From sequence record NC_054930.1: a stretch of DNA of 64,000 bases. One strand, 5' to 3'. The stretch is from Escherichia phage PP01. A program made the position numbers and the translations under genes. Below, piece after piece: positions 9,529-33,635 of this stretch; within the stretch, counting starts at the first letter, position 1, and every line of letters begins with the position of its first letter. The notes beneath the pieces are model-generated. The model worked only from the letters and a program-made list of their open reading frames with translations, was not told the DNA's origin and searched no databases.

Positions 9529-9999
9529 TTAATCATGTTTCCACACCCCATCGGTATTTGACCAAAGTCGCTGATTATCTGATCCTCGCCACAGCTTTTT
9601 GGTCGGAAGATTTTTCTCATACTTCCCATCAATAATAACATCAACATATTTAAGCATTTCTAGTTGTTTAATATCTTCAAACTTATATCCTGTCCACAAC
9701 CAAATGCTTTTATTTGGATAAAGATTTTTTACTGTTTGAACAATGCAATGAACAACATCTCGGTTATCAGGATAGAGAGGGTCTCCTCCAGTTATAGTTA
9801 ATCCTTCTATATAATCATTATTCAAACATTCAATTAATTGTTCCAGCGTTTCACCAGTGAATGGAATGCCATTTCTAGCATTCCATGTTGATTTATTATA
9901 ACACCCTTCACATTTATGCAAACAACCTGTAACGAAAAGAACGACCCTGCAACCAGGGCCATTCACAAAGCAGCACGGGTATATTCTGTCATAATTCAT
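9529..9999 (-). CDS. nrdG: Anaerobic ribonucleotide reductase activating protein (radical SAM)
   Basis: ORF track 9529..10020; Cys cluster CCFVNGPGCRVVLFVTGCLHKCEGCYN; start at MNYDRIYP gives 156 aa as in T4. Confidence 0.85.
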   Translation of the reverse strand: MNYDRIYPCCFVNGPGCRVVLFVTGCLHKCEGCYNKSTWNARNGIPFTGETLEQLIECLNNDYIEGLTITGGDPLYPDNRDVVHCIVQTVKNLYPNKSIWLWTGYKFEDIKQLEMLKYVDVIIDGKYEKNLPTKKLWRGSDNQRLWSNTDGVWKHD

Positions 10000-10826
10000 A
10001 ATAATATCCAATTTTTCCAAGCTTCATCAGTAGAATTACAGCGTTTTAGTATAAGATGTCTAGAAACTTTTATGGCATTTGAGCACTTTTTAATTGAATC
10101 ATATTTAATACCGTCAACTGAAACGGTTTTGCTAGTTGGAGAAATTTTTCCATACATTGGATTTTTTGAACCAACTTGAAGTCCTTTTAAAGCTTTTGAA
10201 AGCTTTTGTCTAGATTCCAATGACATGGGAGAATTCTTTTTACCTTCAATAATTCGCTTGCGATGAAGTTCGCGTTCTTCTTCACTCAAAGAATTGTAAT
10301 ATTTTTTAACACCGTTTGATATAGATAATTTATCTTTCTCAGACCGCTCTCCAGCTAATTTACTTCTAACATCTTTTCGCTTCATAGCTATGCTTACGGC
10401 TTTATTTAAATTTGCTTGATGCTCTGGCGTACGTTTATATTTCTTTAAAGCACGTGAAATAGCTATTTTAGTTTCTTCTGTTCTCTTTTTACCTTTATTT
10501 GCTAAACTATTTTTGCGGCGATGTTCAAGTGTCTGTTCATAGGCAGTTCCACCTTTTCCACCAGGTTTAATATTATATGTATTTTCTTTTAGACAATACT
10601 CTTCGGTTACAAGTTCAGCTTCTTTATCATACATTTGTTTTTCATTATCAAAAACATGTAAAATTTCTTTATTAAAATTTTTTCTACCATATTTTAATAA
10701 AGCGGCACGAATCAATGTTCCTGACCCCATATAACCGTCATTTATGTTATCGGTGCTATGCGCACCGATATATTCCTTTGAATTAATTATATTTGTTATT
10801 TTATAAATTATATAATACCTATGCAT
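9996..10826 (-). CDS. GIY-YIG homing endonuclease (Seg-like), 276 aa, free-standing between nrdG and nrdD
   Basis: N-terminal GIY-YIG module YIIYKITNIINSKEYIGAHST...YMGSG; N-terminal ~70 aa closely parallel segB in this window; basic C-terminal DNA-binding half. Confidence 0.8.
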   Translation of the reverse strand: MHRYYIIYKITNIINSKEYIGAHSTDNINDGYMGSGTLIRAALLKYGRKNFNKEILHVFDNEKQMYDKEAELVTEEYCLKENTYNIKPGGKGGTAYEQTLEHRRKNSLANKGKKRTEETKIAISRALKKYKRTPEHQANLNKAVSIAMKRKDVRSKLAGERSEKDKLSISNGVKKYYNSLSEEERELHRKRIIEGKKNSPMSLESRQKLSKALKGLQVGSKNPMYGKISPTSKTVSVDGIKYDSIKKCSNAIKVSRHLILKRCNSTDEAWKNWILL

Positions 10827-12636
10827 GTTTTACTCGTTTTACCATTTCTTTCATTTTACCTAAATTCCATGGAACAACGCTAGGAGTTCCAAGATAACCG
10901 CATGTTCTTCTTATGGTGTTCATCTTTTTAGGATCAGTTTCTCCACAAATAGAACAAACAAATCCGTTTTCAGTAGGAGTCATTTCATGGGTACTTCCAC
11001 ACGTAAAACATTTATCTACCGGCATGTTAACACCAAAATAATCTAAATGTTGTGCAGCATAATCCCATACGGCCTCAAGACCCTTTAAGTTATTTTTCAT
11101 ATCAGGAAGTTCAACATAAGAAATGTGACCGCCTGTCGCAATGAAATGATATGGCGCTTCACGAGAAATCTTTTCAAACGGAGTAATATTTTCTTCTACT
11201 GAAACATGGAAACTGTTAGTGTACCAGCCTTTATCGGTAACATCTTTTACGCTTCCATATTTTTCTGTATCGAGTTTACAGAAGCGATAACAAAGGTTTT
11301 CAGCAGGAGTAGAATACAAGCTAAAAGCAAAACCGGTTCTTTCAGTCCACTGCTTAAGACGAGCATTCATTTTAGTCAAAATTTCCTGTCCAATATCACG
11401 ACCGACAAGAATATTCAATTCGTGAATACCAATGTATCCTAGGGACACTGAACTTCTACCGTTTTTAAATAACTCAATTATGTCGTCATCAGGTTTAAGA
11501 CGAACCCCGAATGCACCTTCTTGGTAAAGAATAGGAGCAACAGTCGCTTTAACTCCTTTTAAGGAACTAATTCTACACATCAAAGCTTCAAAACACAAAT
11601 CCATACGTTCATTGAATAATTCAACAAATTTCTGTTCATTGAACTGTGTTCCAATATAAGAATCTAACGCGATGCGAGGAAGATTCAGTGTTACAACACC
11701 AAGATTATTACGTCCATCAAGAATTTCATTACCAGTCGAATCTTTCCATACGCTCAAGAAACTACGGCAACCCATTGGAGAAACAGGAACAGATGAACCA
11801 GTGATAGCTTTATTGTTCTTAGCTGAAATAATATCAGGATACATCCTTTTGCTTGCACACTCTAGAGCAAGCTGCTTAATATCATAGTTCGGATCGTCTT
11901 TATAAAGATTAACACCTTCTTCAACGAACATAACAAGTTTAGGGAAAATAGGAGTTATCCCATCACGACCAAGACCTTTAATACGATTTTTCAGAATTGC
12001 TTTCTGAATCATTCGTTCAGTCCAGTCAGTTCCCGTACCAAATGTAATTGTTACAAAAGGCGTTTGTCCGTTTGAACTAAAGAGAGTATTTACTTCATAT
12101 TCATAAGCTTGGAACGCATCGTATACGTCTTTTTCTGTTTTAGATTGGGCATAATTCAACGCGTCAGCGATTTGCCATTTTTCTGCATCCTCAATATGTT
12201 TTGCATAGGTGCGTTTAACATAAGGAGAAAGGACTTTATCTACATTCGCAAAAGTCGTTCCACCGTATTGATGGGAAGCAACCTGTGCAGTAATTTGTGC
12301 CATAATTGCAGTAGCAACACCGATTGATTTAGGAGTTTCAATCTGTGCATTACCGAGCTTAAATCCGTTCTCAAGCATTCCTTTTAAATCTACTAAACAG
12401 CAATTAGTAAATGGAAGAGCAGGGGAATAATCAATATCATGGAAATGAATAATTCCGCTTTCATGCGCTTTCATAATAAAAGACGGGACCATATTTTTGG
12501 CAATGTGTTTAGACACAATACCAGCCATAAGGTCCCGTTGAGTTGGAAAAACACGAGAATCTTTATTAGCATTCTCGTTTAAAAGGTCTTTATTAGTTTT
12601 ATGAATCAATCCTTCAATTTCTTTTTCAATTGTCAT
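10819..12636 (-). CDS. nrdD: Anaerobic ribonucleoside-triphosphate reductase (glycyl-radical enzyme), uninterrupted
   Basis: 605 aa; C-terminal Zn ribbon (CFTCGSTHEM...CSICG) and glycyl-radical motif RRTCGYLG; one continuous ORF with no intron. Confidence 0.93.
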   Translation of the reverse strand: MTIEKEIEGLIHKTNKDLLNENANKDSRVFPTQRDLMAGIVSKHIAKNMVPSFIMKAHESGIIHFHDIDYSPALPFTNCCLVDLKGMLENGFKLGNAQIETPKSIGVATAIMAQITAQVASHQYGGTTFANVDKVLSPYVKRTYAKHIEDAEKWQIADALNYAQSKTEKDVYDAFQAYEYEVNTLFSSNGQTPFVTITFGTGTDWTERMIQKAILKNRIKGLGRDGITPIFPKLVMFVEEGVNLYKDDPNYDIKQLALECASKRMYPDIISAKNNKAITGSSVPVSPMGCRSFLSVWKDSTGNEILDGRNNLGVVTLNLPRIALDSYIGTQFNEQKFVELFNERMDLCFEALMCRISSLKGVKATVAPILYQEGAFGVRLKPDDDIIELFKNGRSSVSLGYIGIHELNILVGRDIGQEILTKMNARLKQWTERTGFAFSLYSTPAENLCYRFCKLDTEKYGSVKDVTDKGWYTNSFHVSVEENITPFEKISREAPYHFIATGGHISYVELPDMKNNLKGLEAVWDYAAQHLDYFGVNMPVDKCFTCGSTHEMTPTENGFVCSICGETDPKKMNTIRRTCGYLGTPSVVPWNLGKMKEMVKRVKHA

Positions 12637-29640: not shown

Positions 29641-29944
29641 TCAATTTATTCATAGACTTTGAAACTTCTGCACGAACCTCATGTAGGTTTTTAAGCTGTT
29701 CAAGACGCTGCTCATAGTAAGCAATTTCATCTTCTTCGAGACAGTCCTGCGAATCTTCTTTAAGATAACGTGCATAGTCCTGGAAAGCTTTACGGACTAC
29801 TTCCTGGAAGTCATCAAGACTTTGAATTTTCTTAGGAGCAACAGATACACGACGAGGGGCAGTATAATATTCATAACCAAACCCTGCGCTTAATTGAGCC
29901 ATTAATATTTTTCCTCTGGTTGGAACACAGCACGACAAGCCCAC
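29624..29944 (-). CDS. Hypothetical protein, 106 aa
   Basis: ORF track. Confidence 0.5.
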
Positions 29945-30168
29945 ATACTGGCTTCTTTGAGTTTCGTTTTAGCAATAGTTAACTGATCGAGGCTTTCAGC
30001 ATAATTCTTTGCGAATTCACAGTCTTCACAATTATCTAGTGCTTCCCAGAATTCATCATACAAAGCATCAAAGATAAGTCCTAAACGAACTTCAGCATCT
30101 TTGATAGCATTCACTTTACCGATTTTCTCTTCAGTGTGCGGCTTATAACCTTTAATGTCTTCAATCAT
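29902..30168 (-). CDS. Hypothetical protein, 88 aa
   Basis: ORF track. Confidence 0.5.
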
Positions 30169-30382
30169 ATTTTACTTCCTCGCCAGTACATAAATCATAT
30201 TCAACTAAACGAATAGGTTCATGAATGCCATATCCCTGAACAGAAATTTCTGTCGTAGGATAAATTCCACTAATATCACCCATGTTCCATGCTTCATTAA
30301 ATTGCTGTTCGCCTGAATTACTAAACCACTCGGCGAAAGCATTTAGCACATCTTTAGAACCTTCAATAATTATCTTTGCCAT
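30161..30382 (-). CDS. Hypothetical protein, 73 aa
   Basis: ORF track. Confidence 0.5.
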   Translation of the reverse strand: MAKIIIEGSKDVLNAFAEWFSNSGEQQFNEAWNMGDISGIYPTTEISVQGYGIHEPIRLVEYDLCTGEEVKYD

Positions 30383-30756
30383 TACAAGCTCTCAGTAAAG
30401 GTACGAGCGATAACGTCGCGCTGCTGTTCCGGAGTCAGAGAGTTAAAGCGAACTGCATAACCTGATACACGGATGGTCAGCTGCGGATATTTTTCCGGAT
30501 GCTTAACTGCATCTTCCAGAGTTTCACGACGCAGAACGTTAACATTCAGGTGTTGACCACCTTCAATTTTAACCGTAGGCTGTGGTTCAATTTCAATTTC
30601 ACGGGCATGCAAACCGTAGAAAATTTCCGGGTCTACAAAAGAGTCCTCTTTAAAGGTTTTAGAGACAATAATTCGTGCTTGAATACCATCTTCAAAATAA
30701 ATAGTACCTTTATGCGTGCCTTCAAGAATTTGATATGCTTTCATATAACCTCTCAA
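30382..30756 (-). CDS. Autonomous glycyl-radical cofactor (GrcA/YfiD-like; T4 Y06I-type)
   Basis: C-terminal ~60 aa ([60 protein letters not shown]) look essentially identical to E. coli YfiD, including glycyl-radical motif RVSGYAV. Confidence 0.88.
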
Positions 30757-31082
30757 TTAGAAAATAAATTTATCCAAGATTGCTCTTTAATTAAAAATGG
30801 CTCAGAATCATATGCCATTAAACTTTGGGTAATTAGTCCTTTAAAAGGCCCATCAATAAATTCCATGGTAAAATATGGAATTTTATTCATTAATCTTGCA
30901 TTAGGAGCCGTGCACAAAACTCTGCATCCTTTGAATACACCTTTTTGTAATTTGTATTGCTTAGGATAAAATTCGCTCAAGACGTTGTTATTTGCCAAAA
31001 TTTCAAAATGATTCACCAATTTATTTTTAATAGTTTTTGGCGAAAAATAAAGATATTCGAAAAGTTGCGTATCTGTCATCAT
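30753..31082 (-). CDS. Hypothetical protein, ~109 aa (start at MMTDTQ)
   Basis: ORF track 30753..31133; start moved to avoid overlap with upstream ORF. Confidence 0.45.
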
Positions 31083-31618
31083 TGCATTCCAATTACGAAA
31101 AACTGCGGACGAGTAATACCACCAATGCAACATTTACTATTGCAACAGTAATGCACAGTTTCAATATGAATATCGTAAATTTTATCCATATCAGGAGCTT
31201 TAACAGGCTCATCAATTATATACAAAATTCGTGAAAGCGATAAACCTCTGAACTTACTTCCTTTATTGCCAATAAAACTACGCACAGAATCAGTAAATAA
31301 ACGAAAACGTATATCATCATTAGAATAACGCGAAAATTCCTTTTTAATGTTATTTGCAGAAATTTTAGCGTAAGCTGAAGTGTTAGAAAGAACAATAACT
31401 GTTCCACCATCATACAGCCAATTAGCAGCAAAGTTAGTCACAGCAGTTGATTTACCAGATTGACGTCCACCATCTAGTCGAAGTGTGCAATACTGTTTGA
31501 GTAAGTCTTCAAATGGTGGGATATAATCGTTTTTACAAATTTCTTCTACTCTAGCATCAGAATGGTGTGTAAAAGCATTCATCAGGGATAGATAAGGACC
31601 AGTTAAAAATGTTCTCAT
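31079..31618 (-). CDS. P-loop NTPase-like protein, 179 aa
   Basis: Walker A-like GGRQSGKST; sits at the locus where I expect denV in T4. Confidence 0.55.
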   Translation of the reverse strand: MRTFLTGPYLSLMNAFTHHSDARVEEICKNDYIPPFEDLLKQYCTLRLDGGRQSGKSTAVTNFAANWLYDGGTVIVLSNTSAYAKISANNIKKEFSRYSNDDIRFRLFTDSVRSFIGNKGSKFRGLSLSRILYIIDEPVKAPDMDKIYDIHIETVHYCCNSKCCIGGITRPQFFVIGMQ

Positions 31619-31770
31619 TTCTTCTCTCTAAATTTGGGCCATTCCGTGGCGCATGAATTGTCCATTTCTGTATTTACCCATTACCGCACTTGGGCTCGAC
31701 CTTATTACAGGTTGGCGGGAATCCCTCACAGAACCATGAGGTCCAGCTTGTTCCCATATTTCTTATTTGC

Positions 31771-32244
31771 TTATTTGAACGATTTAACGTACTGAATAGA
31801 ACCTTTACTATTCACAAAGGCAATTTTACCATTTTTGTTATACATGGTAGCAGTACGTTGATAGCCATAAGTTTGTTTACCAGATTGATAACCAACTAAT
31901 GCAAAATTATCTTCACCCATTTTATTCTGTTTAGCGCGAATGCGTTCATGACCATGTGCCATAAGAACCTTAGCATCACCAGTTGCAATGGATCGACGAG
32001 TTTTTTCATCTTCAACTGTATTAACAAAGTCGTCAAATGAATCAAATTTAGCATGAGATTTATTATACAGTTTTCCATCTACTGCATAATTATATCCTTG
32101 TACATCCATCTCAACTTCTGTACCATCATCTAATACAGCAGTAATTTTCTGTCCTTTTTTAAATTTCAAAAGATCAGTAAAAGATTCAGCAATAATTTGA
32201 GAATTAATAGCTGCTTCAGTAATAAATTCTTGATATGTTTTCAT
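31771..32244 (-). CDS. Internal (head-packaged) protein with capsid-targeting leader, 157 aa
   Basis: N-terminal MKTYQEFITEA matches the T4 IPII/IPIII capsid-targeting sequence; located beside e like the T4 ipII/ipIII genes. Confidence 0.7.
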   Translation of the reverse strand: MKTYQEFITEAAINSQIIAESFTDLLKFKKGQKITAVLDDGTEVEMDVQGYNYAVDGKLYNKSHAKFDSFDDFVNTVEDEKTRRSIATGDAKVLMAHGHERIRAKQNKMGEDNFALVGYQSGKQTYGYQRTATMYNKNGKIAFVNSKGSIQYVKSFK

Positions 32245-32260
32245 GTGTATCCTTTAATTT

Positions 32261-32578
32261 TTATTCTTTAGGGAAGTTTTTAGAATATGCATCATAAAGC
32301 TTATTTCCAATACGGCGGAAAACTCTAGCCGCAAAACGATTTTCTGGGTTTTTAATCATGATTTGCATCATATAAGTACCCGCGTCAGAAAGAGCTTCTT
32401 CATAGTACCCGTTAATTTCTTTAAGAGTCCTACGTTTACCGCCAGGACCATCAACAGTGATTTTCCATTTACCTGTAGAAGTGCGACTTGGCGGCTCAAC
32501 TTGTTCAATCCAGATATAACCGCCTTCTACACGTTGTCCTGCAGCAGATTCTGCAATAAATTCTTGATAGGTTTTCAT
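32261..32578 (-). CDS. Internal (head-packaged) protein with capsid-targeting leader, 105 aa
   Basis: N-terminal MKTYQEFIAESA; early promoter upstream. Confidence 0.7.
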   Translation of the reverse strand: MKTYQEFIAESAAGQRVEGGYIWIEQVEPPSRTSTGKWKITVDGPGGKRRTLKEINGYYEEALSDAGTYMMQIMIKNPENRFAARVFRRIGNKLYDAYSKNFPKE

Positions 32579-32629
32579 GTGTTTCCTTTAAATATTTTAA
32601 TTAGTAATTTGTCTCTTCAAGCAACTGTG

Positions 32630-33635
<1,006 letters not shown>

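Follow-up and report, generated by a model that had tools for sequence, protein, structure and literature searches.

The vs.6 gene of Escherichia phage PP01 combines a phage-type N-terminal half with a radical domain copied from host grcA

The 64,000 nucleotides (nt) of the Escherichia phage PP01 genome analyzed here (sequence record NC_054930.1; called the window in the following) contain, on the minus strand, an open reading frame (ORF) that a program-made ORF list places at 30382..30756. This ORF is the vs.6 gene of a T4-type (Tequatrovirus) phage. The gene and the function of its product, a member of the family of the bacterial protein GrcA (YfiD), are already known and are ordinary for T-even phages. 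Here, we found that the 3′ half of the gene is a copy of the corresponding part of host grcA, and what our analysis adds is evidence of repeated host-to-phage conversion at a fixed junction. When all data are considered jointly, they are best explained if Vs.6 (the Y06I protein of T4) is a glycyl-radical cofactor that rescues host pyruvate formate-lyase (PFL), if its gene is a grcA mosaic and if the host-derived part was converted from the host more than once. We put the probability of this combined reading at about 0.85.

Results

Composition of the vs.6 gene

At the protein level, residues 61–120 of Vs.6 and residues 68–127 of E. coli GrcA are identical at 60 of 60 positions, and this segment includes the radical glycine motif RVSGYAV. 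The N-terminal half of Vs.6 is seven residues shorter than that of GrcA and shares 13 of 40 residues with it (33%; pairwise E = 2e-5), the patches ARxIVxK, ED and RE(I/V) being common to both. Since this match is significant, the whole of vs.6 can be regarded as an old grcA homologue and not as the fusion of a radical domain to an unrelated sequence. The host-like C-terminus of about 60 residues and the divergent N-terminal half had both been pointed out in a preliminary description of the window, which was made from the letters alone, and both were confirmed here.

In a four-way nucleotide alignment, the border between the two halves was abrupt. Before the junction at gene nt 179, agreement with E. 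coli grcA was 78/178 nt and after it 182/185 nt (Fisher p = 1e-35). The preliminary description had suggested such an alignment for locating a recombination junction, and the uniform divergence that would have spoken against recent capture was not seen. When the ORF was compared by blastn with 5,426 complete E. coli genomes, grcA was matched in all of them (best identity 98.4%) over ORF nt 191–375 only, and there was no match in this collection upstream of ORF nt 191. As a control, the whole window was run in three pieces by megablast against the same genomes. The only E. coli match in the 64 kb was the segment 30378–30566, which hit grcA and, more weakly, pflB. The guanine plus cytosine (GC) content was 0.47–0.53 inside the tract and 0.27–0.37 around it, and the GC content at third codon positions (GC3) was 0.25 in the 5′ half of vs.6 and 0.40 in the 3′ half. 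Taken together, these data indicate that the mosaic is real and not a chance effect: codons 1–59 are an old AT-rich version of the GrcA N-terminal half that belongs to the phage lineage, and gene nt 179 to 353/356 are a copy of the host radical domain.

The 5′ junction corresponds to GrcA residues 67/68, so that the structured domain begins a few residues before it. Its position probably stays the same because, upstream of the sequence GAAGG, phage and host genes have diverged too far for pairing. In E. coli phages, the tract ends near gene nt 353–356, and in Klebsiella phages its 3′ end is near nt 338. Compared with the allele of E. coli 503025, the window tract has 1 mismatch in 175 nt. The longest perfect runs to E. 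coli alleles are 178 nt for T4 (SK1144 allele), 152 nt for the window and 145 nt for RB69. Over a 174-nt core (gene nt 181–354), the best E. coli alleles agree with the window at 172/174 positions (503025) and with T4 at 174/174 positions (SK1144); for RB69, the values are 171/174 with the SK1144 allele and 172/174 with the K-12-type JM109 allele.

Origin of the host-like tract

The pflB gene was also considered as donor, and it was ruled out in favor of grcA since its radical domain matches the tract at 144/186 nt (77%; 78.9% by megablast). The grcA genes of E. coli and C. amalonaticus are 92.5% identical over the 174-nt core, and those of E. coli and Salmonella about 84% over the last 186 nt. 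The phage tract is nearer to E. coli than the other genera are and thus sits inside Escherichia. As it is closer to E. coli than any genus sampled, its capture must be recent, in line with what the preliminary description had supposed. Constraint on the protein alone cannot explain this nucleotide identity, because phages of the RB16/RB43 type encode the same 61 C-terminal residues with a nucleotide identity to E. coli of 82–84% and about 33 synonymous differences. We conclude that the transfer went from host to phage since the GC3 of the tract is host-like and that of the phage 5′ half is not, and since both halves of E. coli grcA diverge in parallel from other enterobacteria. Compared with C. 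amalonaticus, these halves agree at 176/198 and 172/186 positions, in step with taxonomy.

Variation of the tract among Escherichia phages

T4-type and RB69-type phages are 97–99% identical in the tract, about 90% in the 5′ half of vs.6 and about 72% in the adjacent vs.5. Between the T4 group and the RB69 group, synonymous divergence (dS) amounted to 0.39–0.47 for the 5′ half and to 0.02–0.17 for the tract (T4 vs RB69, p = 0.012). As host sample, we used 28 grcA sequences of the E. coli type, which came from genomes and from metagenome contigs. In this sample, the tract is polymorphic at three sites (gene nt 204, 219 and 282), which form the haplotypes ATC, TTC, TTA and TCC; in addition, ATT was seen once, in Escherichia sp. 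L004. Phages vary at each of these three sites, with the same alleles as E. coli, and each of the four main E. coli haplotypes was recovered in them: TTA in the window and in L094; TTC in T4, Sf24, R5505, L092, L093, L096, Shf125875, p000y and L180; TCC in RB69, L091 and O157 typing phage 6; ATC in Shfl2. The haplotypes TTC and TCC were each found on T4-type and on RB69-type 5′ halves. T4, L093, L096 and Shfl2 each agree at all 175 nt with one particular extant allele of E. coli. A rough estimate of the chance that the sites coincide is 0.02, and this value drops to about 1e-3 when agreement of the alleles is required as well.

Tracts matching other hosts

Among isolate phage records, 106 were 95–99% identical to the 3′ tract of K. 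pneumoniae grcA (taken from a chromosome that is mislabelled as plasmid), and almost all of these are T4-like Klebsiella phages that belong to the genus Jiaodavirus. Their tract begins at the same junction as in E. coli phages. When compared with K. pneumoniae, KPV15 agreed at 157/158 positions, the 165.7-kb metagenomic phage contig L182 matched perfectly over 158 nt and Nispero over 101 nt. GC3 of the Klebsiella phage genes was 0.20–0.24 in the 5′ halves (phage-type) and 0.54–0.61 in the tracts (Klebsiella-type). Since there are tracts of the Escherichia type and tracts of the Klebsiella type, at least two independent captures have taken place. In three Klebsiella phages, the 5′ halves are identical at 174–176 of 177 positions and the last 25 nt are identical, and the 186 nt at the 3′ end contain 8–12 differences. 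In the 174-nt core, L182 has the K. pneumoniae sequence, the allele closest to L181 is one from Raoultella, and Roth19 takes an intermediate position. Judged from these sequence comparisons, repeated conversion within each lineage is probably the most economical reading.

The radical domains of E. coli and Klebsiella differ at two protein positions, E/L and K/E. Klebsiella phages of two genera (Jiaodavirus and Slopekvirus) read LLDAVEH, and E. coli phages read LEDAVKH even when their nucleotides have diverged. This distribution hints at selection for a radical domain that matches the host.

Two Klebsiella phage records deserve separate mention. In KPV15 (L260; L116 from IMG/VR is the same 167,034-bp genome), the 5′ half of vs.6 is frameshifted and only a C-terminal ORF of 51 amino acids is annotated. 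This may be due to an error in sequencing, or the gene may be a natural pseudogene in which the tract is still 157/158 K. pneumoniae. The record of Klebsiella phage vB_Kpn_AM_K4 (288,685 bp) contains a Jiaodavirus-type vs.6 at L262:1324-1686, which agrees with the 5′ half of Roth19 at 170/177 positions and matches K. pneumoniae grcA perfectly over 101 nt. The size of this record is far above that of a Jiaodavirus genome, and it may represent a concatenated or mixed assembly.

Homologues of vs.6 are spread over unrelated phage families. T5-like phages carry one in their transfer RNA gene region (L089:1320-1688, Salmonella phage oldekolle, Tequintavirus), and others were found in the jumbo phage contigs L115, L117 and L118 (345–357 kb). 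The T5-like and jumbo copies have an N-terminus of the MKAYQ type, and their radical-domain DNA is 68–83% identical to any sampled host (119–145/186 for the jumbo contigs, 133–135/174 for the T5-like copy). In Providencia phage PSTRCR_127 (L088:382-783), the radical domain NVNVMNREMLLEAMEDPNKY...LTKEQQ is closer to the C-terminus of PflB than to GrcA, and its donor may have been a pflB-type gene or a grcA gene of Morganellaceae. A possible short Klebsiella-like patch in phiKp5 was considered too scattered to be claimed.

Several database records required care. PLSDB lists as plasmids some whole or partial chromosomes, among them K. pneumoniae of 5.37 Mb (L172, CP125156.1), E. coli of 4.8–4.9 Mb, Proteus of 4.1 Mb and Aeromonas of 4.9 Mb. 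For us these records were a source of host grcA, and for plasmid analyses they are a trap. A K. aerogenes 'plasmid' record of grcA contained a frameshift and was excluded. Bacterial grcA/pflB contigs labelled viral (IMG/VR, metagenomes; for instance L119 and L159-L167) were used as host alleles only or were ignored. L034 (NZ_JBQPOM010000029.1), labelled Vagococcus sp. WN89Y, contains a typical enterobacterial GrcA with 91% identity to E. coli and is probably a mislabelled or contaminated assembly.

Identity and genomic setting of vs.6

The window Vs.6 (120 amino acids) is 100% identical to T4 Vs.6/Y06I, 94% to RB69 Vs.6 and 64% to E. coli GrcA; at the nucleotide level, it shares 96.8% with T4 vs.6. 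In the T4 record, vs.6 is a 363-nt coding sequence flanked by vs.7 and vs.5, with e, the internal-protein genes and vs.8 located upstream. The order vs.7-vs.6-vs.5 is the same in the window, and the flanking ORFs match T4 vs.7 and vs.5 at 90–99%. The YfiD homologue of T4 that the preliminary description mentioned is indeed this gene. A 24-kb stretch around vs.6 is 95–96% identical to many Tequatrovirus isolates, and the window is a T4-type genome. The positions of the gene and its parts are summarized in Table 1.

Table 1. Positions in the window of vs.6, its constituent parts and the nrdD and nrdG genes
Feature	Position	Strand	Description
vs.6 coding sequence	30382..30744	-	120 codons plus TAA; from the ORF list, the 363-nt T4 coding sequence and the 100% amino acid match to T4; start most likely
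Shine-Dalgarno-like GAGAGG	30749..30754	-	4 nt upstream of ATG 30744; read from the sequence
Phage-type 5′ half	30567..30744	-	Gene nt 1–178 (codons 1–59 and first base of codon 60); AT-rich; 78/178 nt vs grcA
Host-derived tract	30392..30566	-	Gene nt 179–353; structured radical domain; near-exact copy of the E. coli grcA 3′ half
GGT codon of Gly95	30460..30462	-	Radical glycine of RVSGYAV; from sequence, translation and GrcA/PflB alignments
nrdD	10819..12636	-	605 amino acids, one uninterrupted ORF; Pfam NRDD (573 bits) and Gly_radical
nrdG	9529..9999	-	156 amino acids from ATG; radical S-adenosylmethionine activase of NrdD; Pfam Fer4_12 (164 bits) and Radical_SAM

The preliminary description had the gene start at 30756. 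This TTG is the first possible start of the mechanical ORF list and lies upstream of the GAGAGG element. The true start is most likely the ATG at 30744, since GAGAGG precedes this codon and the T4 annotation agrees with it. Pfam Gly_radical (PF01228) was matched by residues 61–101 with 66.8 bits (cutoff 22.2), and the best match among PDB structures was 6OWR (YfiD/GrcA), followed by the C-terminus of PFL. RVSGYAV comprises residues 92–98, and Gly95 of Vs.6 aligns with GrcA Gly102 and PflB Gly734. The most fitting description of Vs.6 is that of a phage branch within the GrcA family which is divergent but has a radical domain identical to that of the host protein. A scan of 29800–31800 for promoters and terminators gave no more sites than shuffled sequence.

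The neighborhood of vs.6 shows some differences from T4. T4 has ipIII, ipII and denV between e and vs.8, and the corresponding part of the window (31079–33161, minus strand) differs. Two minus-strand ORFs in it (32261–32578 and 31771–32244) both start with MKTYQEFI and look like internal proteins. For denV, there was no tblastn match anywhere in the window. About 190 nt at 31750–31944, the start of the 1.2-kb flank upstream of vs.6, could not be aligned with T4.

Function of the protein

Background on the function comes from PMC8683613. In its passages citing Wagner et al. 2001, YfiD and T4 Y06I are described as 14-kDa spare parts that receive a glycyl radical from the PFL activase, and the radical-bearing proteins are stated to form complexes with oxygen-cleaved PFL and to restore its activity. 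The same paper reports that residues 61–127 of YfiD duplicate the fold of PFL residues 693–759 and that residues 1–60 are disordered, yet needed for binding of cleaved PFL and for efficient installation of the radical. The window protein equals the T4 protein, and therefore the function given in the literature for Y06I applies to it directly. Going by these reports, Vs.6 would be an autonomous glycyl-radical cofactor of host PFL.

The sequence of events reported for T4 Y06I would here be as follows. Oxygen would cleave host PflB at its radical glycine, and Vs.6 would bind the damaged enzyme. Host PflA would then place a glycyl radical on Gly95 of Vs.6, and the C-terminal domain of Vs.6 would take the place of the lost PflB C-terminus, so that activity returns. 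An infected cell in the micro-oxic gut might in this way keep producing acetyl-CoA, ATP and formate. With respect to the gene, the comparative data suggest that the tract was copied from host DNA in events of homologous recombination (gene conversion). At the least, the phages of Escherichia and those of Klebsiella would have acquired it separately, and each of the two lineages has probably done so several times. The host-copied part would essentially be the piece that fits the PflB active site and is recognized by PflA, and the phage part would be the binding and regulatory half.

Discussion

We consider it somewhat more probable than a coin toss that the radical-domain half of vs.6 is continually rewritten from the chromosome of the current host through a fixed 'landing pad' of 160–178 nt, and that it stays in this way an exact match to host GrcA, PflB and PflA. 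According to this proposal, the tract is of the Escherichia type in Tequatrovirus and Mosigvirus and of the Klebsiella type in Jiaodavirus. The strongest competitor, to which we give slightly less than even odds, is that the repeated conversions are neutral and arise as a by-product of T4 recombination on any host match of at least 100 nt, without being an adaptation to the host. Recombination of T4 with homologous DNA that is present in the cell takes place readily. Moreover, the RB16-type gene works with the same protein and diverged nucleotides, and the radical domains of E. coli and Klebsiella differ by two residues only. What argues against neutrality is that LLDAVEH is found in two genera of Klebsiella phages and LEDAVKH in E. 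coli phages, which suggests that the host-matched protein is selected.

A single ancient capture in the ancestor of the T-even phages, with the tract preserved since then by constraint at the nucleotide level (codons or messenger RNA) and without later exchange, appears improbable. The 5′ junction is exactly alike in T4-type and RB69-type phages, and the 60 encoded residues are invariant, so that purifying selection must be strong. However, the RB16/RB43-type genes encode identical residues with many synonymous differences from E. coli, the four E. coli haplotypes recur in phages and dS of the tract is 3- to 5-fold below that of the 5′ half. The K. pneumoniae-type tract in Klebsiella phages of the same subfamily largely refutes this explanation.

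The third alternative concerns nrdD and nrdG. These are separate genes at a distance of 18–20 kb from vs.6, and NrdD is a glycyl-radical enzyme as well. Vs.6 might therefore serve to repair the NrdD of the phage itself after cleavage by oxygen, in place of host PFL, or be a decoy that titrates host PflA, and a role in nucleotide metabolism was raised as a speculation in one phage-genomics paper. We regard this as quite unlikely. The radical domain of Vs.6 is that of GrcA and matches the C-terminus of PflB, whereas the C-terminus of NrdD reads TIRRTCGYLG. Vs.6 has no Pfam NRDD match, and its domain is of the PFL/GrcA type without the NrdD-type motif RRTCGYLG. In addition, the cited passages of the literature report rescue of cleaved PFL by Y06I, and conversion by host grcA would not be tolerable if the domain had to fit NrdD. 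The co-occurrence with nrdD and nrdG stated in the preliminary description holds, but the conclusion drawn there that the phage carries two glycyl-radical systems was overstated. The phage encodes one complete system (NrdD and NrdG) and a part for a host system, and Vs.6, for which there is neither a phage activase nor a phage target, uses host PflA and host PflB according to the portion of the literature cited above. Between nrdG and nrdD, overlapping both genes at its ends, lies an ORF of 276 amino acids (9996–10826, minus strand) with a GIY-YIG-like N-terminus (YIIYKITNIINSKEYIGAHS...), which is probably a free-standing homing endonuclease.

The reverse transfer, in which E. coli acquired the 3′ half of its grcA from T-even phages, is very unlikely. 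Common polymorphisms alone give no direction, but GC3 of the tract is 0.40 (E. coli-type) or about 0.6 (Klebsiella-type) as compared with 0.19–0.25 in phage 5′ halves, and the two halves of E. coli grcA are about equally divergent from other enterobacteria. That the host-like stretch is merely contaminating host DNA or a chimeric assembly has a negligible probability. Its length of about 175 nt and its sequence and composition, which are exactly those of the host, would fit such an artifact. However, the reading frame continues unbroken across both junctions, phage-specific variants are present within the tract and the same mosaic occurs in 647 phage records (at least 90% identity), among them the T4 and RB69 references from independent laboratories.

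Several observations weigh against repeated host-to-phage conversion of a PFL rescue gene as the combined explanation. The statistics of recurrence are modest, as there are few sites, host alleles were sampled unsystematically and SK1144 was picked as the best match of T4. Part of the common polymorphism could also have arisen if hot third positions mutated in parallel or if phages exchanged a few alleles among themselves by recombination. The contig L182 is in principle a possible assembly chimera, but the pattern is also seen in isolate genomes. When Salmonella grcA was compared with all phage records, no tract derived from it was found; the best identity was 83.8%, and this only to an E. 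coli-type tract. Other lineages are 72–86% identical to every host allele sampled and have no recent tract, so that the process is not universal; these are RB16/RB43 (Pseudotevenvirus), Slopekvirus (phiKp5, KP15-like), RB49/JSE (Krischvirus), CC31 (Karamvirus), IME-CF2 and the Providencia, T5-like and jumbo phages. Vs.6 does not pass the NCBIfam equivalog TIGR04365 (spare_glycyl), for which it reaches 153.3 bits at a cutoff of 170 and E. coli GrcA 234; it matches profile positions 25–126 only and stays below the cutoff because its N-terminal half is divergent. The functional reading relies on a single biochemical study, in which the identical protein of T4 was examined, as represented in the citing paper. 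Finally, class III ribonucleotide reductases use formate as reductant, formate has also been discussed as a cofactor of T4 NrdD, and NrdD is a likely downstream beneficiary of Vs.6 because it consumes formate. The chain from PFL repair via formate to phage NrdD is plausible and can be offered as an inference only.

Compared with T4 Vs.6/Y06I, the window gene has the same protein, the same gene order, the same overlap of its stop/start with vs.5 and the same mosaic junction. The differences are about 10 synonymous nucleotides (6 in the 5′ half and 4 in the 3′ half) and the haplotype of the tract, which is TTC in T4 and TTA in the window. E. coli GrcA, the nuclear magnetic resonance structure of which is 6OWR, probably has the same division of labor between an N-terminal half that is needed for binding damaged PFL and a C-terminal half that carries the radical, and its residues 68–127 are the same in protein and 98–100% identical in DNA. 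In contrast, its N-terminal half is only one-third identical, and the chromosomal context of ung and eamB is absent around the phage gene. With the C-terminal glycyl-radical domain of PflB, which is the part replaced by the spare protein, Vs.6 shares the fold, the radical loop and RVSGYAV, but the DNA identity of 77% given above is low.

Intragenic recombination between host and phage has reportedly been seen in photosynthesis genes of cyanophages such as psbA. These genes are said to resemble vs.6 in that a phage-carried metabolic gene is a phage/host mosaic with repeated exchange. Unlike them, vs.6 belongs to a strictly lytic coliphage that degrades host DNA, it has a single tract of about 160–178 nt with its 5′ end fixed at a domain boundary, and several phages match extant host alleles without a single mismatch.

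In phage-genomics papers, vs.6 is entered among the conserved ORFs, with Gly_radical as its domain. We found no description of its nucleotide mosaic, of the recurrence or of the Klebsiella counterpart in the searchable literature, which does not include key older T4 papers, and we do not claim priority. In anaerobic or micro-oxic infection, the suggested functional chain would lead from PFL repair to formate and from there to phage NrdD. The vs.6 gene bears on how auxiliary metabolic genes of phages remain compatible with their host partners, and its tract may be a simple locus for assaying rates of host-to-phage conversion. With base-perfect tracts, a junction fixed at a domain boundary, several donor alleles and two host genera, the tract is an unusually clean natural record of DNA flow from a bacterial chromosome into the virulent phage that destroys it.

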